A stretch of 32,000 nt of DNA from Candidatus Saccharimonadota bacterium (GCA_022843095.1 JALHOH010000002.1:120001-152000); one strand, 5' to 3'. Positions 4,406 through 30,904 are shown, counted from the stretch's first letter. The notes: generated by a model not told the origin, from the sequence alone. Made by a program: numbers and translations.

Positions 4406-7375
4406 ATGGAATCTTTGCTTGAGAATCTGAACGCCGCACAGGCTGCGGCGGTGACCCATGAAACCGGGCCGCTTTTGATCGTTGCCGGTGCGGGGACGGG
4501 GAAGACCACGGTGTTGACCCGTCGGTATGCCCATTTGCTTACGCACGGCAAAACGCCGGACGGAAAGTCGCTCAAGCCGGAACATGTCCTGGCCGTGACG
4601 TTTACCGAAAAAGCCGCAGGGGAGTTGGAAGATCGTGTGCTGCAACTTTTGCCGACTGGCACCTACGACTTTTGGATTCACACGTTTCACGGGTTTTGCC
4701 AACGCGTTTTGGAGGCGCATGCGCTGGAGATCGGGTTGCCGAATGAATTTAAGCTGGTGACACCGACGGATGCGTGGCTTTTGTTGCGTCGTCATACGCA
4801 CGAACTTCCGTTGAACCACTATCGCCCGCTTGGGAATCCGAATAAGTTTTTGCGTGGGCTTCTTTCGCATATTTCCAAAGCGAAGGACGAAGGGGTGACG
4901 CCCGAGCAGTATCTCGCGTTTGTGCAGAATGCTGTCCTGGACGGGGATGCCGAAGCGGCGGCCGGGGAGAAGGCGCGTCTGCAGGAAATTGCGGATCTGT
5001 ATTTTTTCTATCGTAAATTGCTGTTGGAAGAATCGGCCTTGGATTTTGGGGATCTGATTTTGGAGACGCTCCGCCTGTTTCGTGAACGCCCTGCTATTTT
5101 GGCGCAGTATCGCAAGCAATTCCGGTATGTGTTGGTGGACGAGTTTCAGGACACTAACTGGGCGCAATATGAGCTGATCAAACTCTTGGCGGGGACGGAG
5201 CGGAATCTTACGGTCGTCGGTGATGATGACCAGGCGATCTACAAGTTTCGTGGGGCGTCGCTTGCCAACATTTTGCAGTTCCGTGATGACTTTCCGGATG
5301 CGCGGACCGTGGCGCTGACGCAAAACTATCGGTCGTTTCGCGAGATTTTGGATGTGGCGTACGGCTTCATTAAAAAGAACGACCCGAATCGGTTGGAAGT
5401 GCGTCTTGCGGATACAGGGCTTTCCAAACAATTAGAGGCGATGCGGGGAGAGGGGGCGCGGATCCAGGTGAAGTGGCAAAAGACGGTGGATGATGAGGCG
5501 GATGCCGTGGCAGAAGAGATCAAACGCAAAAAGCAGGAAGAACCGGAAACACGGTGGGATGCGTTTGCGGTGTTGGTGCGTTCAAACGATAGCGCTGAGC
5601 CGTTTGTCCGAGCGTTTGAACGGCATGGGATCCCGTTTCAGTTCATGGCGTTGCGTGGGTTGTATGCAAAGCCCATCGTGTTGGATTTGATTGCGATGCT
5701 CTCCCTCGCCGATGGGTATCATGAAAGCAGTGCTGTGTGGCGTGTGCTTGCGATGCCCTGTTACGCCATGGGGGCAAAGGATATGGCAGAGCTTGTGCAT
5801 CATGCGAATCGCAAAGGCATTCCGTTGTGGTCGGCGGTCAAGAATGCGTCGTATCGGTTGCCGGAAACGCAGGTGTCCGAAGCAGGAATGAAGATCGCGG
5901 CAAAAATCGTGCAGGATGCGGATGGATTGGGGGAGGCGGCGCGACGCGAGCCACCGATGCGCGTGCTTCAACTCGCGTTGGATAAGTCGTTGTACTTAAA
6001 AACCGTGTTGAGTTGGGGAGAATCCGAAAAACGAGAGGCGATCCAGCATTTAAACGGGCTGGCAGATCGGATCAAGCGCTACGAACGTTCCACGCACGGG
6101 CCAACGCTGCGCGGATTCTTGGAGGAATTCCGTTTGGAGGTGGATTCCGGGGAGGAAGGGGCGTTGGATGCGGATCCGGAAGCCGGGCCGGAATTAGTGA
6201 AGATCCTGACCGTCCATGCGGCAAAAGGGTTGGAGTGGAAACATGTGTACTTGGTTTCGCTTGTGGAACAGCGGTTTCCGTCCCGGGCACGACCGGACGC
6301 CATTCCTTTGCCGGCGGGGTTGATTCAAGAGCGATTGCCTGAAGGTGATTTGCACCTGGAAGAAGAGCGCCGGTTGTTTTACGTGGCACTTACGCGGGCG
6401 CGCGATACGTTGACGCTCACGGGAGCTGTGAACTACGGCGGGACGCGTGACAAAAAGCCGTCGCCGTTTTTGGCAGAGGCGGGATTTGAGGTGCAGGTCG
6501 AAGCCGTACGGGGAGAGGATGCGCGTGGGCTTGAGCTTGCGCCACAGGTGGAAGAGGCGGATCCATTGCGACCGCATTTCGAGCTCAAACGACGGTTTAG
6601 CTTTACCCAGCTTGCCGCGTTTCGAAAATGTCCGTTGCAGTATAAATTTGCGCACCTGTATCGCATCCCGATTTTGGGGTCGTATCAAAAAAGTTTCGGG
6701 CAATCCGTCCACTTGGCGTTTCAGCGGATTTTGGAGATGCACAAATTGCGGACAAGCGCCGTGCAAGCTTCCTTGTTTGGAGGAGGGGCCGTCGAGGGAG
6801 GCTATCGGTCGCCCGGCGGGTTTACGGTGTCCGAAGAAGAGGCGGTGGAGTTGTTTGAAGACGCCTGGATTGATGAATGGTACCCAGATCGCCGGACGCA
6901 TGATGAATACTGGGCCAAGGGCAAGGCGGCGCTCAAGACATTTTGGCGCGCCTGCGCGGAACGGGCCCCAGACGTCGTCGAAATCGAAAAGGATTTTACG
7001 TTGTTGCTTGGCCAGCATTCCATCAAGGGAAAGATCGACCGCGTGGATCGCGTCCCAGACGGGTCGGTCGAAGTGTTGGACTATAAAACCGGCACCGCCA
7101 AAGAAGAATTGGGAACGGAAGATAAAGAGCAGCTTTGGTTGTACCAGATTGCCCTGGAAGAGCGGGGAGTCACTGTGTCTCGATTGGCGTACTGGTACGT
7201 GATCGACGGGGAGTTTCGGGAGGTGGAGCCGCTGAAAGAAAAGAAGCGCGCGGAATTCTTGGAGAAGCTGACCGAACGCATGGACGGGATTTTGCGGAGC
7301 GAGTTCCAGCCCACACCAGAGCCGTTTACCTGTAAGTTCTGCGACTTCAAAAACATCTGCGAGTTCCGAAAGTAA
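4406..7375 (+). CDS. UvrD/PcrA-family ATP-dependent DNA helicase fused to a C-terminal Cas4/AddB-like 4-Cys PD-(D/E)XK nuclease
   Basis: Helicase motifs: LNAAQAAAV, AGAGTGKTT (Walker A), VLVDEFQDTN, VVGDDDQAIYKFRGA, QNYRS, TVHAAKGLEWKHVYL, RRLFYVALTRA. Nuclease: FRKCPLQYKF ... GKIDRVDRV ... VEVLDYKTG ... FTCKFCDFKNIC. The start was chosen at ATG 4406 (MESLLENLNAAQ); GTG 4331 and ATG 4370 are alternatives. Confidence 0.9.
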   Translation: MESLLENLNAAQAAAVTHETGPLLIVAGAGTGKTTVLTRRYAHLLTHGKTPDGKSLKPEHVLAVTFTEKAAGELEDRVLQLLPTGTYDFWIHTFHGFCQRVLEAHALEIGLPNEFKLVTPTDAWLLLRRHTHELPLNHYRPLGNPNKFLRGLLSHISKAKDEGVTPEQYLAFVQNAVLDGDAEAAAGEKARLQEIADLYFFYRKLLLEESALDFGDLILETLRLFRERPAILAQYRKQFRYVLVDEFQDTNWAQYELIKLLAGTERNLTVVGDDDQAIYKFRGASLANILQFRDDFPDARTVALTQNYRSFREILDVAYGFIKKNDPNRLEVRLADTGLSKQLEAMRGEGARIQVKWQKTVDDEADAVAEEIKRKKQEEPETRWDAFAVLVRSNDSAEPFVRAFERHGIPFQFMALRGLYAKPIVLDLIAMLSLADGYHESSAVWRVLAMPCYAMGAKDMAELVHHANRKGIPLWSAVKNASYRLPETQVSEAGMKIAAKIVQDADGLGEAARREPPMRVLQLALDKSLYLKTVLSWGESEKREAIQHLNGLADRIKRYERSTHGPTLRGFLEEFRLEVDSGEEGALDADPEAGPELVKILTVHAAKGLEWKHVYLVSLVEQRFPSRARPDAIPLPAGLIQERLPEGDLHLEEERRLFYVALTRARDTLTLTGAVNYGGTRDKKPSPFLAEAGFEVQVEAVRGEDARGLELAPQVEEADPLRPHFELKRRFSFTQLAAFRKCPLQYKFAHLYRIPILGSYQKSFGQSVHLAFQRILEMHKLRTSAVQASLFGGGAVEGGYRSPGGFTVSEEEAVELFEDAWIDEWYPDRRTHDEYWAKGKAALKTFWRACAERAPDVVEIEKDFTLLLGQHSIKGKIDRVDRVPDGSVEVLDYKTGTAKEELGTEDKEQLWLYQIALEERGVTVSRLAYWYVIDGEFREVEPLKEKKRAEFLEKLTERMDGILRSEFQPTPEPFTCKFCDFKNICEFRK

Positions 7376-7809: not shown

Positions 7810-8088
7810 CTAGCGAGTGGAAGGGTATGCGACAAATGTTCGGTTGTCGCTGGACTTGATGAGAGGGTATCGCCTCCCATCCGGGGCTTGTTCGAACCCT
7901 GCGAGGTACTCGCCTTTGGCCAGAGAAAGTGCTCCAGCGTCGTTGCAAGCGTCCTCGATCATTCGATGCGTCAGATACCCAGAAGCATCGCGGTGCGCTT
8001 GACGCTTATCTTCTCGCAATTCTGCCAAGGCTCGTGCGTACTCTTCGCTGTTTTCAGGGGACAAAAGAGATTGCTCTTGTTTCGTCAT
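7810..8088 (-). CDS. Small protein, paralog A of a three-member family (92 aa, unknown function)
   Basis: ATG 8088 is preceded by GGAGGAGGG. The block SGYLTHRMIEDACNDAGALSLAKGEYLAGFEQAPDGRRYPLIKSSDNRTFVAY aligns with AGYLVHQAREDSLFATGAINPGDEISGYEQKPDGGSYPIISTQDGATYVLY of 15627-15863 and with DLIDAGEIDTSKGEYLARFDLSGDRLVFEIF of 13667-13900. Confidence 0.7.
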   Translation of the reverse strand: MTKQEQSLLSPENSEEYARALAELREDKRQAHRDASGYLTHRMIEDACNDAGALSLAKGEYLAGFEQAPDGRRYPLIKSSDNRTFVAYPSTR

Positions 8089-8118
8089 TGATCCCTCCTC
8101 CAAAAATGTACAATCGTA

Positions 8119-8147
8119 AATCTAGCGTATTTTGGGGATTTTGTCAA
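8119..8147 (-). promoter_or_regulatory. Consensus promoter TTGACA - 17 nt - TAGATT (cassette copy A)
   Basis: Minus strand reads ccccTTGACAaaatccccaaaatacgcTAGATTtacgattgtacatttttGGAGGAGGG. About 60 bp is shared with 13901-13962 and 15864-15918. Confidence 0.7.
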
Positions 8148-8217
8148 GGGGTGAGGGGCGAAGGAACGCGTTTCGTTTTCTGCGTAGAATCTTCGCGTGT
8201 GATACACTTCCTCATAG

Positions 8218-8607
8218 ATGACCTTTGCGTTGTTTTGCGCACTCATGGGAGTGACCTCGCTCTTGGCTTGGGGCGGTTGGGCGTACGTGATTTTTCTCAT
8301 TGACCCCTATGAAGCCGGTGCCCCGGGGCTTGCGCTGTTTTATATCACGTTGTTTGCGGCCCTGATCGGAACGTTTTCGTTGTTGGGGTTGCTGTATCGC
8401 ATCAAGTGGCTTGGACGTTCGCAGGTGTTGCTTCGTGAAGTGATGGTCGCGGTTCGTCATGGGGTGATGTTCGCGGCGGTCAGCGTCGTGTCGCTCGCGC
8501 TTGCCTCGCAGAATCTACTGACGTGGTGGAATGTGCTTGCGCTCTTCATCGTCACGGCGGTGGTAGAATATGGGTTTTTGTTGGTGCAGGAAGGACGAAG
8601 ACAATAA
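8218..8607 (+). CDS. Small integral membrane protein (129 aa, about 4 TM segments)
   Basis: Four hydrophobic stretches (ALFCALMGVTSLLAWGGWAYVIFLI, LALFYITLFAALIGTFSLLGLLY, GVMFAAVSVVSLALA, WWNVLALFIVTAVVEYGFLLV). It lies directly upstream of mreB. Confidence 0.6.
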   Translation: MTFALFCALMGVTSLLAWGGWAYVIFLIDPYEAGAPGLALFYITLFAALIGTFSLLGLLYRIKWLGRSQVLLREVMVAVRHGVMFAAVSVVSLALASQNLLTWWNVLALFIVTAVVEYGFLLVQEGRRQ

Positions 8608-8674
8608 TCCACGGGCGCGCTTTGACTTCCCCCTCCGCGGTTGTCACAGTTCCGGTTGAATTCCATCTCCCTGT

Positions 8675-9721
8675 ATGATCGGTTCTCTTTTTCGGCATTT
8701 CACCAAACAAATCGGCATCGATTTGGGGACGTCGCACACCATCGTGTACGTCAAAGGCAAGGGAATCGTCATCAACGAGTCCTCCGTGGTCGCGATTAAC
8801 CGCCGAACGGGGCAGGTGATGGCGGTCGGCGAAGAGGCACGCGGAATGCTGGGCAAAACGCCGCCGCATATCCAGGTGACCAAGCCATTGCAACGCGGGA
8901 TCATCGCGGATTTTGAGGTCACCGAAAAAATGATCCGTTATTTTTTTGATAAAGTGCACGACGACCATTCCCTGGTCATTCCGCGTCCGCGGGTGGTCGT
9001 CTCTGTCCCATTGGACGTGACGGAAGTCGAGCGAAAAGCCGTGTCAGACGCAACCACCGCCGCCGGCGCGCGAGAAGTGCTGCTTGTGGAAGAGCCGATC
9101 GCCGCCGCAATTGGCGCCGGCCTTGCGATCAGCGAATCCGTTGGAAACATGGTGGTGAACATCGGTGGAGGGACGACCGAAATCGCCGTGATCTCGTTGA
9201 ACGGGGTTGTCACGGCAAAAAGCATCTCCATCGCAGGGGATGAGCTCAACAAAAACATCGTCCAATACGCGCGTGACGTGTTTAATCTTTTGCTTGGAGA
9301 TCGTGTCGCGGAAGAGATCAAAATCGCCATCGGATCGGCGGTCGAGCTTGAAGAGCGGATGGAAACGTCCATGCGTGGTCGTGACTTGTTGTCGGGGTTG
9401 CCACGCGAAATCATGGTGAACGATGCGCAGATTCGCGAGGCGCTTGGGCGGAGTGTCAAAGCGATCGTGGAACATGTGAAATCGATTTTGGAGACCACGC
9501 CGCCTGAATTGGTGGCGGACATCTATCAGCGCGGGATTGTGCTGACCGGTGGCGGTGCGCTCCTGCGGGGGTTGGACGCCGCGATCTCGCGTGGAACGGG
9601 GTTGCCGGTCCGTGTCGCCGATGATCCAGCAACGGCGGTGGTGCGCGGATGCGGAGCGCTGTTGGATCTGCCAAAATTGCTTGAAGACGTTGCCTATCCC
9701 GCAACCGAGCGCATGACGTAA
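8675..9721 (+). CDS. mreB: Rod-shape-determining actin homolog MreB
   Basis: IGIDLGTSHTIVYVKGKGIVINESSVVA, KPLQRGIIADFE, VVVSVPLDVTEVERKAV, LLVEEPIAAAIGAG, VVNIGGGTTEIAVISL, GIVLTGGGALLRGLD. Confidence 0.95.
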   Translation: MIGSLFRHFTKQIGIDLGTSHTIVYVKGKGIVINESSVVAINRRTGQVMAVGEEARGMLGKTPPHIQVTKPLQRGIIADFEVTEKMIRYFFDKVHDDHSLVIPRPRVVVSVPLDVTEVERKAVSDATTAAGAREVLLVEEPIAAAIGAGLAISESVGNMVVNIGGGTTEIAVISLNGVVTAKSISIAGDELNKNIVQYARDVFNLLLGDRVAEEIKIAIGSAVELEERMETSMRGRDLLSGLPREIMVNDAQIREALGRSVKAIVEHVKSILETTPPELVADIYQRGIVLTGGGALLRGLDAAISRGTGLPVRVADDPATAVVRGCGALLDLPKLLEDVAYPATERMT

Positions 9722-23969: not shown

Positions 23970-25013
23970 CTATTCATCCCCTTCCGGCTTATCCACGAGG
24001 CTTGGTTGGTAGGCATTCCCCTGCCCGGTGATGCGCAAAAAATCCTTGTCGATCAGGGCGTAATCCTTGGTGGCCAAGTTGTACTGATTCACGACCGTTC
24101 CCAGATGCTTGCCAACGCTATCAAAGTGCTGTTGATACTGGGCAAGATGACGCTGGAGGTCCCCAATGCGTTTTTGCAGCTGCTGCGTCTGCTCTTCGAT
24201 CTGCAACGCTTTCAATCCCTGCAACACCGTCTGAAGATATGCCGCAAACGACGTTGGGGAGACGACCATGACATGATACTTGGACGCCGCGACCTGCAAG
24301 ATACTCTCGGTATCCCCGGTTGCCGCCCCGATTTTGTTGATCAACAAATCGTAGTACAGCGCTTCATGCGGGATAAACATGAACGCAAACTCCAATGTCC
24401 CCTCCTCTGGACGGATGTATTTGGACGTTTCCTTGATGCGTTCTTTTAGGTCGTTGATAAACGCTTTTTCATACCGCGCGCGCTCTTCGGGCTTTTCTTC
24501 TTGTACCAGCCGGTTGTAATTTTCCAGGCTGAATTTTGAGTCCACGGGGATGATCTTGTCCTTCACAAAGACAACGGCGTCGACGATGTTGCCATCCCGA
24601 AACTTGTATTGCATTTGATACTGTTCCGGGGAGAACACGTTCCGCAAAAGCGTTTCTAGATAGTATTCCCCCAAAATGCCGCGTTGCTTTGGATTGGTCA
24701 GGATACGCTGAAGATTCTCGAGCTGACCCGAGTAGGACAAAATTTGTTTACTGGTCTCCTCTAGCCGAACGATGCGTTCCGAGACATCCCGAACGGTACT
24801 GCTTAGCTGGAAGCTGGACGTTTGCTGGTGCCGGACGGATTCCTGAGACGTTTGGCGTAGTTCGCTGGCCAGCGCTTCGACGCGTTGCTGAATCAAGACC
24901 AGCGCCTGCGGGTCAATTTGGGGAGGAGGCGTAGTTTGGCGGCTTTTCCACACCAAGACTGCCACCAGCAAAAAGCCCAAAATAACGACGATTAAGAGGA
25001 CGGGATCAGACAT
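23970..25013 (-). CDS. rmuC: DNA recombination protein RmuC
   Basis: N-terminal TM segment, a long coiled coil, then the RmuC core FRDGNIVDAVVF...IIPVDSKFSLENY...FAFMFIPHEALYYDLL...KYHVMVVSPTSFAAYLQTV. Confidence 0.85.
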   Translation of the reverse strand: MSDPVLLIVVILGFLLVAVLVWKSRQTTPPPQIDPQALVLIQQRVEALASELRQTSQESVRHQQTSSFQLSSTVRDVSERIVRLEETSKQILSYSGQLENLQRILTNPKQRGILGEYYLETLLRNVFSPEQYQMQYKFRDGNIVDAVVFVKDKIIPVDSKFSLENYNRLVQEEKPEERARYEKAFINDLKERIKETSKYIRPEEGTLEFAFMFIPHEALYYDLLINKIGAATGDTESILQVAASKYHVMVVSPTSFAAYLQTVLQGLKALQIEEQTQQLQKRIGDLQRHLAQYQQHFDSVGKHLGTVVNQYNLATKDYALIDKDFLRITGQGNAYQPSLVDKPEGDE

Positions 25014-25158
25014 AGAAAAGGCTTCCGTAGCGTATCAAGGACGGCTGGGCTTGCACAGGCGCGGAAACCTCGGTAGGTTGCGCCTTGCCGTGGATTTATC
25101 CACATTTCCGCGACACGCCCAGACATGGTATTGTCGCGAACAATAATTCTCCCTACGT

Positions 25159-25455
25159 ATGATGGCCTATAATCTCAACACCTCGACCGTAGACGAGGAG
25201 CTCGAACAAGAAGGATTCAGCATCCAGGATCTTGATGCCAAGCCCTCCAAGGATGACGATGAGGATGAAGAAGAAGTGGTAAAGGAAGGGTTGGAAGATG
25301 AAGAGGTCGATGGTGCGGAAAAGAAGGAAGCGACCGTTGAAGAAGAGGACGAGGAAGACTCCGACGACGATCTAAAACGCCTCGAACGCATGGCCGAAAA
25401 GGTCGGGATCGATGAAGACATGCTGAACCTCTCGGAAGAAGAGGAAAGTATCTAA
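25159..25455 (+). CDS. Small, extremely acidic protein (98 aa, Asp/Glu-rich)
   Basis: Contains runs such as DDDEDEEEVVKEGLEDEEVDG and VEEEDEEDSDDD. A hairpin terminator follows directly. The antisense ORFs are Ser-rich mirror artefacts. Confidence 0.6.
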   Translation: MMAYNLNTSTVDEELEQEGFSIQDLDAKPSKDDDEDEEEVVKEGLEDEEVDGAEKKEATVEEEDEEDSDDDLKRLERMAEKVGIDEDMLNLSEEEESI

Positions 25456-25456
25456 G

Positions 25457-25490
25457 CAAAAAACAACGCCCGTGTGGCGTTGTTTATTTA
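25457..25490. terminator. Bidirectional rho-independent terminator
   Basis: AAACAACGCC cgtgt GGCGTTGTTT (10-bp stem, 25461-25485) is flanked by an A-run on the left and ATTTAT on the right. On the minus strand it is followed by TTTTTGCTT. It overlaps the stop codon of 25484-25789. Confidence 0.75.
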
Positions 25491-25789
25491 TAGCCGATAT
25501 ACCTGAGATCCGATGGATTTCCTCTTCTTAAATCCCGTAAAGAAAAGATCACATTCGAGTAATCCATTCGAATCACGCCCTTCCCAATTTGTATCAGATG
25601 CCCCATACAACGCTCGTGAGCATCGCAGTGGAATTCCATCCGTGCACGGGTTTTAGGAAAGTTGACCAAATCTTCCCTCAGCAATATAAGCAAGGATCGT
25701 TCGGAGAAACGACCCCCTAGACTGTCAATCTTTTCTCGTAACCCGGGCGGTCCAATAATCACCCATAGACCATTCACTCCTCTGCTCAT
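25484..25789 (-). CDS. Hypothetical protein (101 aa) with a His/Cys cluster, immediately downstream of the long ORF-poor transcript
   Basis: There is a strong SD (AGAGAGGAGGTTCGC-ATG). The sequence contains FHCDAHERCMGH. The terminator follows directly. No family recognised. Confidence 0.6.
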   Translation of the reverse strand: MSRGVNGLWVIIGPPGLREKIDSLGGRFSERSLLILLREDLVNFPKTRARMEFHCDAHERCMGHLIQIGKGVIRMDYSNVIFSLRDLRRGNPSDLRYIGYK

Positions 25790-26766
25790 GCGAACCTCCT
25801 CTCTTTAAAGACCAGCGGGGCTGATCTGTACAGGGAGAAGCATGTGAGCGGCACATGCACCGTGGAATACATCCTCCTTACGTCTAGCCCAGCCGGCTTT
25901 TGTGTAGACCTCCTCGTAGGTCGCCTAGCTGCAAACCTGCTTCGCAGGTCGCCCACCGCCTTGAGGTCCCTTTGGGTCGGGAGGGGAAAGCAGATTGCTT
26001 AGCAGAGTCCCTTGGCAGAGTCCCTTTGGAGAGGGGGTCCCTGGGTGCTTCGCGCTGGAGATGGCCTGTAGCCACTACTCGTTGCGATCCCTTTGGCGGA
26101 GGTTATGACTAGAGTGTGAATGCAGCAGATGAAAGAATCATCAGCCCGTAAGGGGTCTCGGTGATCAAAGGCATCGTCGCGACCGAGATGTAGCCCAGCC
26201 ATCAAATAGGGAGACCTGAGTCCTGTACGCGCCAGGTTCGAGATGGCACTCGGCCATTCCCCTACTCGCCAACTTCGGGGAATAGCAGCTCGAACGTGTC
26301 GAGTCATTCGTACAGCACTCTTCGGACGTTTCTTTCCGTCCGCGTGGGGTGCCTGTTGATGAGTGTTGGTGCGGACGGGTGCTACGGCACCCGTCCCCCT
26401 TCCCTCACACAGATCCCTTCCGCCCCAGAGCCAGGTCTTTGGCTTGGGCATAGCATCGAGGCGAACGGTTCGCGCCTCACCAAGGAGAGGACCCCTTAGT
26501 CAGACGCGAACCGTCGAGGGAAAAGGTTCCACGCCGCCGCTCAGCCATCCTGTGGGGATTTCCCCTCCGGAGAAGGCGGGTACAAGACAGAATGCGTGCG
26601 CACGGGGGAGAACGGAAGGATCGCCGCCCGAAAGCGTTGATCCCCTTTTCTTTCGAAAAGGCTCAAATCCCATTACAAAAAGGAGGGTCTGCAACCGGCT
26701 TCCGCCGACAACATCACCTCCTCCCTGCTGTGAAGCGTGAAGAACTTCTCCTTCGCCTCATCAACA
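25790..26766 (-). ncRNA. Candidate large structured non-coding RNA or very long structured leader (unclassified)
   Basis: About 980 nt lie downstream of a consensus promoter with only short, compositionally odd ORFs in all six frames. Many perfect stems are present: a 10-bp stem at 26373-26396, CCUUUUC-GAAA-GAAAAGG at 26644-26661, GGUUCGCG/CGCGAACC, and the long-range pair GGGCUGAU/AUCAGCCC (25817-25824 with 26139-26146). GNRA and UUCG loops and G-U pairs work only on the minus strand. Confidence 0.4.
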
Positions 26767-26772
26767 AGAAGC

Positions 26773-26801
26773 AGAATACGGCAGAATAAAATGTTTGTCA
26801 A
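26773..26801 (-). promoter_or_regulatory. Consensus promoter TTGACA - 17 nt - TATTCT
   Basis: Minus strand reads TTGACAaacattttattctgccgTATTCT, inside an AT-rich patch (26770-26900). Confidence 0.6.
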
Positions 26802-26895
26802 GTCTTTGTTTACATTAGTATTAAAATTATCTAATTCTACTTATTTTTTTATAAAAAACTGTCGAAATATACGGACGTTTATGAACATAGAGGAA

Positions 26896-26931
26896 CGAAA
26901 AAACGCGCCGTCCCCTCCGGGAGCAGCGCGT
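26896..26931 (-). terminator. Rho-independent terminator (minus strand)
   Basis: Minus strand reads ACGCGCtgCTCCCggaGGGGacgGCGCGT followed by TTTTTTCGTT. Confidence 0.6.
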
Positions 26932-27092
26932 CTTTGTTAGTACATAATCAGGAGGTAGCAGAGCCAGTTAAGCGACTGTGCATGCCCCTGAATCATGTGT
27001 TGGATGGTTGCCATACATGATTGGTCGTGCGGGAAGCCCGGGCGACAGTAGGAATAAAGGGGCGATGTTCTCTACCCCATCATGGGGGAGAA
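26896..27092 (-). ncRNA. Candidate small RNA (about 190 nt) bounded by its own promoter and terminator
   Basis: The promoter at 27099-27127 and the terminator at 26896-26931 delimit it. Internal hairpins include AATCATGT/ACATGATT (26991-27022) and CCCC-atcat-GGGG (27075-27087). It contains a CCUCCU anti-SD-like box. No ORF has an SD. Confidence 0.35.
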
Positions 27093-27098
27093 CGGGAG

Positions 27099-27127
27099 AG
27101 GCTATCCCAAAATGACAGGTTTGTCAA
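27099..27127 (-). promoter_or_regulatory. Promoter TTGACA - 17 nt - TAGCCT
   Basis: Minus strand reads cccgTTGACAaacctgtcattttgggaTAGCCT, located just downstream of the terminator of the 27202-28008 gene. Confidence 0.5.
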
Positions 27128-27142
27128 CGGGGAGACCTTATC

Positions 27143-27174
27143 AAATGAAAAAGGAAGGCAGAGTTGCCTTCCTT
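27143..27174 (-). terminator. Rho-independent terminator of the 27202-28008 gene
   Basis: AAGGAAGGCA gagt TGCCTTCCTT is a 10-bp stem. On the minus strand it is followed by TTTTCATTTG. Confidence 0.7.
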
Positions 27175-27201
27175 TGAGGACACGTGGGGAGAACCGAAGC
27201 T

Positions 27202-28008
27202 CTACCCGCGCTCCTCGAGCCTGCAGACGTGGCACGCCATCTTGAGACCGTGGTGGTCTCGGTAGACGTACGCTGACCCCGTGGGATGGCGGTGCGCCCG
27301 CTCGAAACGGGTCGCCATCGAGACCGGCGCCGCGTCGAGCAGCGTCTCCCGGATCTCTTCGTAGAGACCCAGGAGCCAGATCTGCTCGGACTTCGTGAGC
27401 TCCTTCATCTGGCGACCGCTCGCGCGATCGAACCAGAAGAACCGCTCACCGACACGGCCCGGGACGCGCGTCCCGCACCGCGCCCACGCGGCGTCGAGCA
27501 GCGCGCCGCGCTCCTCACCCGCCCGGCCGTAGGCCGTGGGGAGGAGCGACGTCGACTTCGGCTTCTCGTGGAAACGGAGGATCCCCTCCTCGTCCATGTA
27601 AAAGCCGGACACCGGGTACGACTGGAGGAACTTCGTCCCATCCAGGGCGTCCCGGCCGTGGTATCGCCGGTACCACGCGCCGACGTAGGTGTCGGCCGGG
27701 AACGCCTGGCAGAACGCGGCGTACACCACGCCCCAAGCCTTCCCGACCTGCGCGCGCATCCAGCGCCTCACCACATTGCCGCGGAAGGACACGTCCCTTC
27801 GCGCCGGCATCCGCCGCGGGTCCACCTTCCCCTCGAGGATGGTCGTCTTGATGAACGTCTCATCCTCGAGCTTCGAAGTCATGGAGACGACGCGGCATCC
27901 GCGCACCCAGGCCTTCGCCTGGTGACGCTCGCGCCGCCGCTCCTCGCGGCCGAACGCACGACCGTACCGGCTCGTGCGACCCCCCTCCAACGCCTTCTGC
28001 AATCCCAT
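27202..28008 (-). CDS. Orphan protein (268 aa) with C/G-ending codon usage unlike the core genes
   Basis: The long ORF has a protein-like composition rich in W/Y/F (GAWYRRYHGRDALDG, FFWFDRASGRQMKELTKSEQIWLLGLYEEIRE). Start ATG 28008 (MGLQKALEGG) is preferred over the track TTG at 28062, which lies inside the palindromic motif. The antisense ORF 27286-28095 is an Arg/Pro-rich artefact. Confidence 0.6.
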   Translation of the reverse strand: MGLQKALEGGRTSRYGRAFGREERRRERHQAKAWVRGCRVVSMTSKLEDETFIKTTILEGKVDPRRMPARRDVSFRGNVVRRWMRAQVGKAWGVVYAAFCQAFPADTYVGAWYRRYHGRDALDGTKFLQSYPVSGFYMDEEGILRFHEKPKSTSLLPTAYGRAGEERGALLDAAWARCGTRVPGRVGERFFWFDRASGRQMKELTKSEQIWLLGLYEEIRETLLDAAPVSMATRFERAHRHPTGSAYVYRDHHGLKMACHVCRLEERG

Positions 28009-28040
28009 TTTACCCTTCCCTTCTCTGTGGTTTTTTACCG

Positions 28041-28065
28041 TTTGCGACCACTTGCGTCGCAAAAT
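28041..28065 (-). promoter_or_regulatory. ATTTTGCGACGCAAG motif (copy 2) overlapping an 8-7-8 inverted repeat TTTGCGAC-N7-GTCGCAAA
   Basis: The motif is the reverse complement of 28051-28065. The inverted-repeat arms are 28041-28048 and 28056-28063. It lies about 40 nt upstream of ATG 28008. Confidence 0.45.
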
Positions 28066-28154
28066 ATTTTTTCTACTAATCCTGCAGGACGCTGAATGAT
28101 GAATTCAACGCCCATTTGAATTCCCATCTACGTTGCCGATGGGGAGGCGAAGTG

Positions 28155-28385
28155 TTACTTCCAGAGACCCTGCACCATCCTTTTGAACCCCGTGATGACC
28201 AGGGCGAGGATTAATGCTGAGGCGAGTAGATGTTCCGCGATGGGAAACACCTCCTTCCAGGCGGCCTGGAATCCTCCTTCACGGTTGAATGCCGCCAAGA
28301 CGACGGCAATTGCAACTGTGATAATCCCCACTTTTTGATACAGGGCGGTGTTTGAACCCCCCTTTCCCTTCTTCTGTGCTGCCAT
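28155..28385 (-). CDS. Small membrane protein (76 aa, 2 TM segments)
   Basis: GGAGG lies 4 nt before ATG 28385. Sequence: MAAQKKGKGGSNTALYQKVGIITVAIAVVLAAF...LLASALILALVITGF. The longer track ORF (to 28811) overlaps the next gene in another frame and is rejected. Confidence 0.55.
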   Translation of the reverse strand: MAAQKKGKGGSNTALYQKVGIITVAIAVVLAAFNREGGFQAAWKEVFPIAEHLLASALILALVITGFKRMVQGLWK

Positions 28386-28409
28386 GAGACCTCCACACGA
28401 CGTATCACT

Positions 28410-28424
28410 TCTTGCGTCGCAAAA
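28410..28424 (-). promoter_or_regulatory. ATTTTGCGACGCAAG motif, copy 3
   Basis: Exact 15-mer on the minus strand, 25 nt upstream of ATG 28385. Confidence 0.45.
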
Positions 28425-28483
28425 TGTTACACCGTGTGGAAGTGCCGTTCTCGTTGCTGAACGGCAAGCAGTTCCCCTTCTTC

Positions 28484-28759
28484 CTAGGGTGGCGCCGGAG
28501 GCTTCCCCCAGGGCGTCCAGAGAAATCTCCAGAACGCCACGAGCTTCCCCCAGATCGCTCCAAGAAGCCACAGAAGTGGCTTCCAAACCACCCAGACCAG
28601 GATGACCCCGATCAGGACCGTCCCCCACTTGAAGGGGGCTGAGAAGAGATCCCCTGCCTTGCTCGACGCACCGAACACGGCAAGGAGCACGACCACGGTG
28701 ATCCACACCGCGGTCGCCAGAGCGAGGCCATTGAGAATGAGTTCGAGGAATGCCTCCAT
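28484..28759 (-). CDS. Small Trp-rich membrane protein (91 aa, about 3 TM segments)
   Basis: The SD AGGAGGGG precedes ATG 28759. Sequence: LELILNGLALATAVWITVVVLLAVF, WGTVLIGVILVWVVWKPLLWLLGAIWGKLVAFWRFLW. Confidence 0.6.
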   Translation of the reverse strand: MEAFLELILNGLALATAVWITVVVLLAVFGASSKAGDLFSAPFKWGTVLIGVILVWVVWKPLLWLLGAIWGKLVAFWRFLWTPWGKPPAPP

Positions 28760-28793
28760 GGCATCCCCTCCTTTCTGCTGGTTGACCCAGCAA

Positions 28794-28827
28794 CTTTTTA
28801 GAGCGATCCAACGATCCCTCTAAAAAG
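28794..28827. promoter_or_regulatory. Perfect 10-bp inverted repeat with 14-nt spacer in the 5'UTR of the membrane-protein operon
   Basis: CTTTTTAGAG (28794-28803) and CTCTAAAAAG (28818-28827) form the arms. The spacer contains the direct repeat CGATCC x2. It lies between the promoter at 28873-28901 and ATG 28759. Confidence 0.5.
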
Positions 28828-28872
28828 CCGCATGATCAATAAAAACTGGGCGGTTCTGTAAGTGGAAACAGG

Positions 28873-28901
28873 AATATACGAGATTATTCCTTTTTTGTCA
28901 A
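28873..28901 (-). promoter_or_regulatory. Consensus promoter TTGACA - 17 nt - TATATT
   Basis: Minus strand reads ggcTTGACAaaaaaggaataatctcgTATATT, in an AT-rich patch. Confidence 0.6.
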
Positions 28902-29011
28902 GCCTAAGTAGACACTATTTTCAAAAAACAAGAAGTTCAGATTTATTGGCCTTTTTTAAAAATCGTCCCGAGAGACCAAAAAATGGAGTTTTCTTAAACG
29001 TATACCAACGA

Positions 29012-29040
29012 TTGACAATTTTGTTTATTTCTGCTAGAGT
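29012..29040 (+). promoter_or_regulatory. Consensus promoter TTGACA - 17 nt - TAGAGT
   Basis: TTGACA at 29012-29017 and TAGAGT at 29035-29040. It is divergent from the 28873-28901 promoter, about 110 bp away. Confidence 0.6.
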
Positions 29041-29046
29041 GCAGAC

Positions 29047-29584
29047 ACGCTCAAAAACCAGGTGTTCCAGGGCAGACGTCGACGATGGATCCGCATCTTC
29101 GACGCCCGGTCTGGAAATGGCCAGAACACGCGCAGATCTCTGCGTAGGGCTAGATAGGCAATCAGCCTGTGACGGCGCCCTGCAGTGGACGATGCGTATC
29201 GGGAAAGGAGGTCCGCATCGGTGGACCATGGTGAAAATCAAAAAATGGCGACGAGACCACTCGCCGTCCTCTGCACGCCCATGCCGATCGGGATATCCGG
29301 CGGCGCGAGCGTGCGGAAGTATCAAAAAAATGAGGAGGGAGTCGACACGCTCGTCTCCCCCCTTTGCATCTTGTCGCACAGTGCAGGGAGTCCTCTCCCT
29401 GCACAAAGCGATCTAGATCGGCCGAGTCTGACACCGCCGCTTCAGCGGCTTGTCCAAGACTCGGCCGAATGCGCCCACCCCTGCGTCGCGAAGTTCGCGG
29501 CCGGCCACGTGGAGGCCTAACATGTTGGGCGGCGGCACCTGATCCACCCCCGGTAGCAATACGGCTACCGGGGTTCTTTTTTTT
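29047..29584 (+). ncRNA. Candidate structured non-coding RNA (about 540 nt) bounded by a consensus promoter and a strong terminator
   Basis: No ORF here has an SD, and the overlapping track ORFs are Arg/Ser/Pro-rich. Perfect 10-bp stems occur at GTGCAGGGAG-tcct-CTCCCTGCAC (about 29380-29403) and GGCCGAGTCT...AGACTCGGCC (about 29419-29465), the latter enclosing GCCGC-ttca-GCGGC. Several further 5-6-bp stems are present. Confidence 0.45.
29548..29584 (+). terminator. Strong rho-independent terminator
   Basis: CCCCGGTAGC aatacg GCTACCGGGG is followed by TTCTTTTTTTT. The T-run overlaps the stop codon of the convergent TrmB-family gene. Confidence 0.8.
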
Positions 29585-30326
29585 ACTTCATCCGCGCATG
29601 GCACGTCTCCATGTAGTCAAACATGGCGCGCATAGTCTCAACCAGGTCGATGCTTTCGATGATCACTGAAATTTGCTTACCTTTATACGTGGATAACGCG
29701 ACACGATTACCATAAACAAAGACATGTCCAGAAAAACGCATCGTGTCCGGTAAACGAAAAACTTCCACTGTTTGTGTGACAGGTTTTATTTCTTGTTCTT
29801 TTGCGAACAAGAACGTCCTCATTTTTGGAGAAAACTTTCGTATCATATCTCCAAATGACTGAAGTGTGCTCCGTGGAATATACTTCAGCAACTCATCCAA
29901 ATTTCCGAATTCATCGATGTACGGCGTTTTGGAGCGTAATACGTCTTCTTGAATCGCCTTCATCGCCTCTGGACCCTCAAACATCTTTACAACCGGTTTT
30001 TCTCCCCGCTGCACAAGCTTCAGCTCGTGGACGGATGCCTCTACTTCGCGCAACGTCGCCTCCATCTGCTTCACACGTGCATGCACGAACGAAGACAACC
30101 GTTCCGGCGATTCCGCCTGAAACAACTTCTTCTTCCCCTTCTCCACCGAACTCATGAGACCGACCCGCGTAAGCGATTCAATAACGGCGTAGGTGGTCAC
30201 GCGAGAGACCTTCGCCTTCTTTGCTAGCACCTGCACCGTAGACGCCCCAAGCTCAAGCGCAGAAAGATACACCTGCGCTTCGCTTTCCGAAAACCCCATG
30301 GAACGTAATGTTTTGACCCATTGCAT
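29583..30326 (-). CDS. TrmB-family (winged-helix) transcriptional regulator
   Basis: From ATG 30326: MQWVKTLRSMGFSESEAQVYLSALELGASTVQVLAKKAKVSRVTTYAVIESLTRVGLMSSVEKGKKKLF, a typical TrmB N-terminal HTH. The upstream extension of the track ORF (to 30536) overlaps the divergent gene and is not used. Confidence 0.75.
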   Translation of the reverse strand: MQWVKTLRSMGFSESEAQVYLSALELGASTVQVLAKKAKVSRVTTYAVIESLTRVGLMSSVEKGKKKLFQAESPERLSSFVHARVKQMEATLREVEASVHELKLVQRGEKPVVKMFEGPEAMKAIQEDVLRSKTPYIDEFGNLDELLKYIPRSTLQSFGDMIRKFSPKMRTFLFAKEQEIKPVTQTVEVFRLPDTMRFSGHVFVYGNRVALSTYKGKQISVIIESIDLVETMRAMFDYMETCHARMK

Positions 30327-30419
30327 ATACAGAGGATCATATCGCGTTCTCCCCGCAAAGGATAGTCTCCCCATTGACCAATCTTCGGTTTCTTGCTTCT
30401 CTTTCTGCAGGAGGAACCC

Positions 30420-30866
30420 ATGGAAAACCCGCCTCGTTTCTTTCTCCATCAGAACATGGTCCCAGCCGCGCTCCGCGACGGCATCCAACGCCTGTTCGGC
30501 CTTCCGAACTTCGACCCGCTCCCCTCTATCGAGCATCCGCCGCAGTACCTCATCGTCTGCGTGAAGCTCGCCGAGCTTCCCTGCACCTACCCCCTGAACG
30601 TCCGGGGGTTCGAGGAGCGTCCGATGGGATCAAGCGACGGCCGTGCCTTCAAACGGGAGCTCCAGGATGCGCTGAAGGACGGCCTTGTGACGACGCAGGC
30701 CACGAGGGAGCACTACCGCTTCTCCGTCGTGGATCGTGGCACCGAGGCGGTCTTCGAGCTCGTGCTGGGTACCTTTGACCCGGACACGAACGTCCGGACA
30801 CCCGCAACCAAGCTCGTCTCCCTTCACCTTCTCTGCAAGGGACTGGTCTCCATCCCGATGCTCTAA
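30420..30866 (+). CDS. Orphan protein (148 aa) with C-ending codon bias
   Basis: GGAGG lies 5 nt before ATG 30420. The codon run ctc gcc gag ctt ccc tgc acc tac ccc ctg aac gtc cgg ggg ttc gag gag differs from the core genes' preference for gtg, ttg, gat and ttt. A terminator follows. Confidence 0.55.
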   Translation: MENPPRFFLHQNMVPAALRDGIQRLFGLPNFDPLPSIEHPPQYLIVCVKLAELPCTYPLNVRGFEERPMGSSDGRAFKRELQDALKDGLVTTQATREHYRFSVVDRGTEAVFELVLGTFDPDTNVRTPATKLVSLHLLCKGLVSIPML

Positions 30867-30867
30867 C

Positions 30868-30904
30868 CAAAACCCCCGCCAACTTGCGGGGGTTTCTTTG
30901 TTTT
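30868..30904. terminator. Bidirectional rho-independent terminator
   Basis: CCAAAA CCCCCGC caactt GCGGGGG TTTCTTTGTTTT lies between the convergent 30420-30866 gene and the RNR gene. Confidence 0.8.

Follow-up and report, generated by a model that had tools for sequence, protein, structure and literature searches.

What is encoded by a segment of about 540 nucleotides (nt) that runs from its own promoter to its own terminator and matches no protein family? The question is raised by positions 29047-29584 of a 32,000-nt stretch of DNA from a Candidatus Saccharimonadota bacterium (GCA_022843095.1, JALHOH010000002.1:120001-152000). The whole stretch is hereafter called the window, and the segment the unit. 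Genomes of Patescibacteria are small and gene-dense. To our knowledge, almost nothing is known about the regulatory RNAs of Patescibacteria, the bacteria of the Candidate Phyla Radiation (CPR), and the literature on non-coding RNAs (ncRNAs) of Patescibacteria, on TrmB in Patescibacteria and on small RNAs (sRNAs) with mini-open reading frames yielded nothing on the unit.

An earlier note on this DNA had proposed that the unit specifies a large ncRNA and holds no credible open reading frame (ORF). The analysis presented here indicates that 29047-29584 is very probably a real, heavily folded RNA gene of ~540 nt. With moderate confidence, it is regarded as a hairpin-rich RNA transcribed from its own promoter, as the local representative of a fast-evolving Patescibacteria class that has not been described before, and as a dual-function regulatory RNA that engages ribosomes. 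The ncRNA proposal therefore holds in part: the element is autonomous, highly structured and without a protein family, but it does contain two ORFs preceded by a Shine-Dalgarno (SD) sequence, a mini-ORF of six codons and a doubtful one of 99 codons. What was established in silico is the layout, folding in excess of chance, the conserved position, the non-random occurrence of the mini-ORF and a divergence typical of hairpins; transcription, translation and a regulatory output are inferred.

Borders of the unit

A consensus scan of the plus strand placed a sigma-70-type promoter at 29012-29040, with TTGACA at 29012-29017, a 17-nt spacer and TAGAGT at 29035-29040. This promoter is near-consensus (10 of 12 positions match) and has an extended -10 TG at 29032-33. 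The predicted transcript, taken to start 7 nt past the -10 box, spans ~538 nt (29047-29584, plus strand) and ends with an intrinsic terminator (29548-29584, plus strand) made of a 10-bp stem, a 6-nt loop and a T-run to 29584. The stem, CCCCGGTAGC-aatacg-GCTACCGGGG (29548-29573), has 8 G-C pairs among its 10, and the scan ranked it as the strongest terminator of the 6-kb neighbourhood. Promoter and terminator were thus both recovered at the sites where the earlier note had seen them. No T-run follows the terminator hairpin on the minus strand, so that termination appears unidirectional.

The unit is convergent to a gene for a TrmB-like winged-helix regulator (29583-30536, minus strand; Pfam PF01978, E 1e-12; PDB 3qph). 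The overlap between the two, which had been remarked upon previously, amounts to 2 nt shared by the T-run and the stop codon of the regulator gene.

Folding of the predicted transcript

The minimum free energy of 29046-29584 is -264.1 kcal/mol, to be compared with -205.0 +/- 7.4 kcal/mol in dinucleotide shuffles (z -8.0); repeated shuffle runs gave z -8.5 and -9.7. Ten coding windows of 538 nt from the same 32 kb, used as controls, had z-scores between -1.3 and +1.8, and excess folding is therefore not a genome-wide property.

The structure corresponds to no curated RNA family. The Rfam search proposed in the earlier note was performed on the whole window with the Rfam 15 covariance models at gathering thresholds, and gave 0 matches. 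In E-value mode over 25000-30000, the best match within the unit was NsiR1 on the terminator, with 24.5 bits against a threshold of 39; such sub-threshold matches are noise. Nine related loci likewise gave 0 Rfam matches. Neither a tRNA nor a tmRNA was detected in the window by ARAGORN, and no second copy or internal repeat of the unit was found there.

Equivalent units in distant relatives

Twelve independent TrmB-like loci with available DNA were counted as relatives (L001-L005, L007, L011, L013, L015-L017 and L020; P0109 was left out), their regulators being 48-60% identical. A metagenome scan returned 2 loci. Near-identical strains (98-100%) around L007, L011 and L013 carry no information.

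The autonomous, structured promoter-to-terminator element described for the window has the same layout and position in all 12 relatives: beyond the regulator gene, and on the strand opposite to it, come a TTGACA-17-TAnnnT promoter, 270-885 nt with few ORFs, and a strong hairpin with a T-run next to the regulator stop. This layout was read from the sequences, with confirmation by the consensus scan for L001, L013 and the sister strain L019 (see below). Every related unit is structured, with z between -3.1 and -9.3. The convergent TrmB-like gene adjoins the unit in 13 loci out of 13, at a distance of 140-560 nt in L007 and L011. As the remaining neighbours vary among the loci (RNR, SMC, HisRS, CCA-adding enzyme) while the regulator and the unit stay together, the two behave as a linked pair. 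L013 has the same wider gene order as the window, with RNR, the TrmB-like gene, the unit, an acidic protein, RmuC and, further on, Alr.

The units have no alignable sequence in common. Neither blastn nor nhmmer matched the unit to the related loci, MAFFT produced no meaningful alignment of the syntenic units, and a comparison of the six-frame peptides of all units against all returned only noise (best E 0.011). It is plausible, with about equal chances of being right or wrong, that these RNAs form a class defined by layout and not by sequence, that is, by a strong sigma-70 promoter, an unusually stable structure of 270-885 nt, a terminator abutting a regulator gene, and a ribosome-binding site with a mini-ORF. 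Even confidence is likewise given to the proposal that the members of this class always lie convergent to, and directly downstream of, a gene for a TrmB-like winged-helix regulator.

A glycine-rich mini-ORF preceded by a Shine-Dalgarno sequence

The sole feature common to the units is an SD, a spacer of 5-7 nt, an ATG and a Gly-rich frame of 4-9 codons. In the window, GGAGG (29511-29515, plus strand) stands 6 nt before the ATG at 29522. The frame ATG TTG GGC GGC GGC ACC TGA (29522-29542, plus strand) encodes MLGGGT in six codons, three of which specify Gly, and its stop ends 5 nt upstream of the terminator stem. It is this ORF, recurring across the units, that had been overlooked when the segment was said to contain no credible reading frame.

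By a relaxed test, a Gly-rich mini-ORF is present in 12 of the 13 units. The peptides are MGGGCG in L001, MGGYGG in L002, MIFEGIGGR in L003, MGGFGITCD in L004, MGGGAGK in L005, MGCG in L007, MGIG in L011, MVSGG in L013, MGAGGGI in L015 and MGGNFGISC... in L017. A strict test is passed by 10 units of 13; it demands GGAG, GAGG or AGGA at -14 to -4, followed by an ATG and a frame of no more than 9 codons, two or more of them for Gly. Shuffled sequences pass at a rate of 0-1% per unit (8/1000 for the window unit), and the total expected by chance was 0.043 when 9 of 12 units had been observed to pass, before L020 was considered. Over 254 kb and both strands, 11 strict ORFs were found, 9 of which lie inside units on the predicted strand. 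MLGGGT is the only one on either strand of the 32-kb window. In L020, the single strict ORF in 6.75 kb encodes MGGYSGF and lies inside the unit, ~90 nt 5' of the terminator by the TrmB-like stop. Since nothing but this SD-preceded, Gly-rich mini-ORF is conserved from unit to unit, ribosomes probably bind or translate the RNA, which would then not be purely non-coding.

The mini-ORF could instead be an untranslated motif, GGAGG-N6-AUG-GGN-GGN, serving as a protein- or 30S-binding site or as a pairing element within a purely non-coding structured RNA, the stop codons being incidental. The very strong structure of the unit would fit this explanation, and peptides this short and this variable have no obvious function as peptides. 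Moreover, CC-AUG-GG with C-rich and G-rich flanks can form small hairpins that expose the AUG in the loop, such as GCCUAA-CAUG-UUGGGC in the window. Against it, an in-frame stop occurs within 9 codons in 10 of 11 mini-ORFs, compared with 38% of the ATG-initiated frames that the units contain, although this comparison is partly circular. The SD spacing is canonical at 5-7 nt, and the third position of the Gly codons varies while the amino acid is kept; between the L004 and L017 frames, the third-position changes GGC/GGA, GGA/GGC and TGC/TGT are synonymous. The counts of GGA, AGGA and GGAG are within ~1 standard deviation of those in shuffles for nearly all units, so that a CsrB-like sponge is also unlikely. 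A purely non-coding RNA is on balance considered rather unlikely.

The short peptide itself could be the product of interest, as a Gly-rich ligand of 4-9 residues for the adjacent TrmB-like regulator, following the logic of Rgg/SHP or RRNPP signalling. The convergent arrangement of the two genes, their strict linkage whatever the other neighbours, and the likeness of the L004 and L017 peptides would agree with such a cassette. Known signalling pro-peptides, however, have 15-50 amino acids (aa) and need export and processing, whereas the peptides found here lack an export signal and are barely conserved beyond Gly. The structured carrier of 270-885 nt would also be left unexplained, and a signalling cassette is judged very unlikely.

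Reading UGA as Gly (genetic code 25) was considered and dropped: the stops of the mini-ORFs are a mixture of TGA, TAA and TAG, and read-through would run into the terminator.

Internal architecture and divergence from a sister strain

One close relative was available for comparison. L019, a 2.9-kb contig of a sister strain, was reached through P0124, the only true match of a HMMER search with a 111-aa ORF as query; a membrane-protein search for further close relatives found none. The TrmB-like coding sequence (CDS) is 98.3% identical between the window and L019 (16/951 nt differ), with a ratio of non-synonymous to synonymous substitution rates (dN/dS) of 0.09. The dN/dS of a flanking 91-aa membrane gene is 0.22. 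About 4% of the third codon positions differ in the TrmB-like gene and about 14% in the membrane gene. The L019 unit has the same promoter, with one different base in the spacer, and the same terminator, and it folds with z -8.4.

The conservation of the unit is uneven along its length. The 5' domain (29047-29244, plus strand) comprises several hairpins and is conserved, with 7 substitutions in ~197 nt. Its CCAGGUG (29059-29065) and the distant CACCUG (29536-29541) are predicted to form a helix that closes the whole RNA, in L019 as well. A block of 87 nt with two hairpins follows (29245-29331, plus strand). It is missing from L019 in the alignments, and is thus dispensable, and it is flanked by A-rich ATCAAAAAA(A)T direct repeats. 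The middle part of the unit is ~24% different from L019. Beyond the 87-nt block come the hairpin GAGGAGGGAG...CUCCCCCCUU (29332-29364, plus strand), the perfect 10-bp hairpin GTGCAGGGAG-tcct-CTCCCTGCAC (29381-29404, plus strand) and the long hairpin GGCCGAGTCT...AGACTCGGCC around GCCGC-ttca-GCGGC (29420-29466, plus strand). The stems named in the earlier note are all present, the position of the second one being shifted by 1 nt. The 3' domain (29448-29584, plus strand) consists of a hairpin at ~29485-29501, the SD, the mini-ORF and the terminator. These 137 nt contain 0 substitutions with respect to L019.

The differences look like those expected from the evolution of RNA hairpins, judging from the two sequences. 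In the hairpin at 29332-29364, four L019 substitutions keep or improve pairing (a mismatch to A-U, a mismatch to G-C, G-C to G.U and G.U to G-C). In that at 29381-29404, one pair becomes U.G and another a C.A mismatch. The interior of the long hairpin (29430-29456) is inverted in L019: blastn aligns L019 1658-1708 with window 29468-29418 as a minus-strand match, and the reverse complement of the window interior agrees with L019 at 22 of 27 positions, as read by eye. This inversion keeps the RNA hairpin but would swap nine residues of any protein. Outside the inverted block, 8 stem substitutions keep pairing, all via G.U, and 3 break it. Several of the changes in L019 turn mismatches into pairs.

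Hairpin indels and an inversion between close strains would also be compatible with unstable palindromic DNA, in which case the unit would be a non-functional, palindrome-rich spacer with a shared terminator and a fortuitous promoter. The lack of any sequence common to units of different lineages points in the same direction. A spacer would not be expected, however, to be kept, each time with a near-consensus promoter, in every sampled lineage of gene-dense genomes, nor to have a mini-ORF that recurs far above chance, nor to retain an invariant 3' segment of 137 nt while flanking synonymous sites diverged. That the unit has no function is therefore highly improbable.

The 99-codon ORF

Three longer ORFs had been listed in the earlier note as lacking an SD or starting upstream of the promoter. 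All three are present, but that at 29185-29520 does have an SD, AAGGAGG (29205-29211, plus strand; kept in L019), located 9 nt ahead of GTG 29221 in the same frame. The resulting ORF has 99 codons (29221-29520, plus strand), and its TAA at 29518-20 ends 1 nt before the ATG of the mini-ORF. Its coding status is doubtful. Another ORF, of 26 codons, had been put forward for examination; its ATG at 29330 is lost in L019.

The unit could thus be an mRNA for a small protein of 99 aa that evolves fast, is probably disordered and has its translation coupled to that of the mini-ORF; the RNA structure would then be secondary. Besides the SD and the proximity of its stop to the mini-ORF, this explanation could draw on the frame remaining open in L019 in spite of the in-frame 87-nt indel and the 27-nt inversion. 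The dN/dS of this frame is 0.42, compared with 1.50 and 0.86 in the other two. The codon-usage log-odds are best in this frame (+0.13), and the L019 version was called by a gene caller as P0124.

That value of +0.13 nevertheless lies at the lower end of what real genes show (0.32 +/- 0.11). Among 1.84 billion representatives and 5.8 billion clusters, the sole homologue is P0124, and it is just 72% identical although the TrmB-like CDS of the same genome pair differs at only 16 nt. The substitutions per codon position are [9,14,18], without significant third-position bias, while they are [2,2,12] in the TrmB-like gene. A protein would have had to survive the loss of 29 residues and the replacement of 9 consecutive ones. 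The ORF has no Pfam match, and AlphaFold2 predicts no confident fold for its product (predicted local distance difference test 42, predicted template modelling score 0.23). In the other units, no comparable ORF ends just 5' of the mini-ORF and no peptide is shared in any frame. A protein-coding role for the 99-codon ORF is considered unlikely.

Proposed mode of action

If the unit is a ribosome-engaging regulatory RNA, the hairpin scaffold would yield a stable transcript and the mini-ORF would be its functional core. For the window, the predicted fold is closed by helices in which the 5' end and 29173-29180 pair with the Gly codons and the stop of the mini-ORF. A ribosome translating or terminating there would melt the overall structure and would sit over the 5' arm of the terminator. 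Translation status, possibly through the supply of Gly-tRNA, would then decide which conformation the RNA adopts, or how much read-through occurs antisense to the trmB-like gene.

Several observations weigh against a ribosome-engaging RNA class, or narrow what can be claimed for it. The reverse complement of the unit folds about equally (z -8.3), so that it is the promoter, the T-run and the mini-ORF that identify the strand. L019 is the only alignable homologue, and there is thus no statistical covariation support for any given helix. The unit of L016 has no mini-ORF, that of L011 has a weak SD, and the L017 frame extends over 21 aa. The strict mini-ORF criterion was set after the first examples had been seen, leaving L020 as the sole prospective locus. 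No common structural context of the SD and AUG was found across the units. The distance of the mini-ORF to the 3' end varies from 42 to 268 nt overall and from 94 to 268 nt in the relatives, and its long-range pairing is predicted only in the window, in L001 and partly in L002. With position and pairing so inconsistent, the occlusion of the terminator by the ribosome cannot hold for the whole class.

A more specific proposal is made tentatively, and with more doubt than belief. The TrmB-like regulator and the convergent, highly expressed, hairpin-armoured RNA would form a conserved two-gene module of Patescibacteria centred on a Gly-rich ORF of 4-9 codons, representing a new kind of ribosome-gated RNA. 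If true, this RNA could be a sensor of translation or Gly-tRNA status, or a source of micro-peptide, in bacteria reliant on a host for their amino acids.

The persistence of a unit beside the same regulator across lineages, with complete turnover of the sequence, suggests that function would be exerted through general structure and a ribosome-binding mini-ORF. Searches based on alignment would miss such a class, which is detected by combining synteny with a motif test. Should transcription and translation be confirmed, the units would join, as a new class, the few RNAs that act by having just a few codons translated. Gene control in an uncultivated phylum could then be approached through the regulator, the RNA and the divergent promoters.

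Comparison with known RNAs

The unit resembles dual-function sRNAs, leader-peptide attenuators and minigene RNAs, but none of the known families that could be checked fits it in every defining respect. Like SgrS/SgrT, RNAIII/delta-haemolysin and SR1/SR1P, it is predicted to be a stand-alone, structured RNA running from promoter to terminator with a small SD-preceded ORF. The ORFs of those dual-function sRNAs, however, encode 26-45 aa of conserved sequence, whereas those described here have 4-9 codons and conserve only their Gly-richness. The unit is also longer, and a base-pairing target is known only for the established sRNAs.

With OLE, GOLLD, ROOL, HEARO and raiA, the unit shares a length of several hundred nt, many helices, its own promoter and terminator, and occurrence in poorly studied lineages. 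These classes have a conserved core fold, whereas the units matched no covariance model and are unalignable across lineages; none of these classes is defined by an embedded translated mini-ORF.

The trpL, hisL and pheL attenuators likewise have a tiny ORF rich in one amino acid, and in the window the stop lies 5 nt before an intrinsic terminator. Unlike in attenuators, no structural genes follow on the same strand, the next gene being the convergent TrmB-like gene. In addition, ~475 nt of structured RNA precede the ORF, and in the relatives 94-268 nt separate it from the terminator.

An SD and a start followed by a few codons within a structured RNA are also found in the E-peptide pentapeptide of 23S rRNA and in the phage lambda bar minigenes, in which the act of translation matters and not a folded product. 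The rules for the peptide sequence are different, and those minigenes reside in rRNA or phage transcripts and not in a dedicated unit linked to a regulator. tmRNA is another structured RNA of several hundred nt with one short internal frame; unlike tmRNA, the unit has no tRNA-like domain according to ARAGORN and Rfam, and its frame has an SD and an AUG but no degradation tag.

Convergent, 3'-overlapping antisense RNAs, such as the type I antitoxins RatA and SR4, are comparable in that they converge on a protein gene and have the terminator region in common with it. Here the overlap is just 2 nt, a gap is present in L007 and L011, and the partner is a regulator, not a toxin. Finally, a small-peptide ORF adjoins a regulator gene in the Rgg/SHP and RRNPP systems as well, but the peptides of the units have 4-9 aa (21 aa in L017) and the regulator is a TrmB-type winged helix-turn-helix protein instead of one with a peptide-binding repeat domain.

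Partner gene and host

The TrmB-like ORF of the window encodes 317 aa, but its homologues align only from residue 56-72 onward. Its first ~69 codons have no counterpart in the homologues, which begin at M70, and from these alignments the true start is probably M70, at 30329. Opposite those codons lies a G+C-rich ORF of 157 aa (30393-30866), which has the appearance of a genuine gene; the hairpin terminator at its end (30870-30895) also serves the RNR gene.

Relatives of the TrmB-like protein occur in Candidatus Uhrbacteria, Parcubacteria and 'Patescibacteria group' metagenome-assembled genomes. None exceeds 60% identity, and the window therefore comes from a CPR bacterium for which hardly any close relatives have been sequenced. 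Viral contigs scanned with the TrmB-like alignment returned nothing. The housekeeping genes of the window encode TGT, an AddA-like helicase-nuclease, MreBC, PBP2, GreA, two aminoacyl-tRNA synthetases, Alr, RmuC and RNR.

Upstream of the unit, at a distance of 110 bp from its promoter, a divergent promoter TTGACA-17-TATATT (28873-28901, minus strand) precedes membrane-protein genes, in agreement with the earlier description of a divergent membrane-protein operon. The divergent pair is also present in L001, L013 and L019. A short, G+C-clamped palindrome stands between the two promoters in L013 (GGCTCTATTGAGCC, 6253-6266) and in L019 (GCCAATTTATTGGC, 1265-1278), and is degenerate in the window (28901-29012). 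It could be an operator for the TrmB-like regulator.

Other structured segments

In the small membrane-protein region, a segment of 145 nt (28206-28350) is missing from L019; the sequence around it (28160-28480, minus strand) folds with z -4.8. Further upstream, a block with 69% G+C (27202-28062) contains long ORFs on both strands (286 aa on the minus and 269 aa on the plus strand), neither of which has a Pfam match. The block folds with z -8.9, is 97% conserved in L019 and has a terminator on the minus strand (27175-27150). It may be a horizontally acquired gene, a structured RNA, or both.

The other flagged unit of the earlier note, at 26896-27175, is ORF-poor and folds with z -5.1, and has no mini-ORF. 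A segment of ~1 kb (25690-26766, minus strand) is also ORF-poor (z -4.9). It follows a minus-strand promoter (26801-26773) and leads into a small, SD-preceded minus-strand ORF at ~25490-25789, and resembles a very long structured leader. In the window (~25160-25455, frame unchecked), in L002 (~6540-6900) and in L013 (6821-7111), a small gene that has its own terminator encodes an extremely acidic (Asp/Glu-rich) protein. This gene bounds the far side of an ORF-poor island of ~4.1 kb in the window and ~1.1 kb in L013.

In L001, beside the TrmB-like gene and the unit, the minus strand of 7950-9300 carries about six copies of the hairpin TCCCTCTCGAccTTCATCaaTTGATGAAaaGCGGGAGGGAA, spaced every ~300 nt among small G+C-rich ORFs. 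A block GGGTGGCACGCCACTTCTTTCGGGGGTTCTGTCAGACGG... is duplicated in this array too. In L007 (6950-7940), and also upstream of the unit in L002, L011 and L015, the divergent promoter drives an RNA that starts with a shared ...TTCGATGCTGACGA... motif and is closed by a helix between its 5' and 3' ends; it has no match in Rfam. Since a TROVE/Ro60 gene adjoins the TTCGATGCTGACGA-motif RNA in L007-L010, these RNAs may be Y-RNA-like partners.

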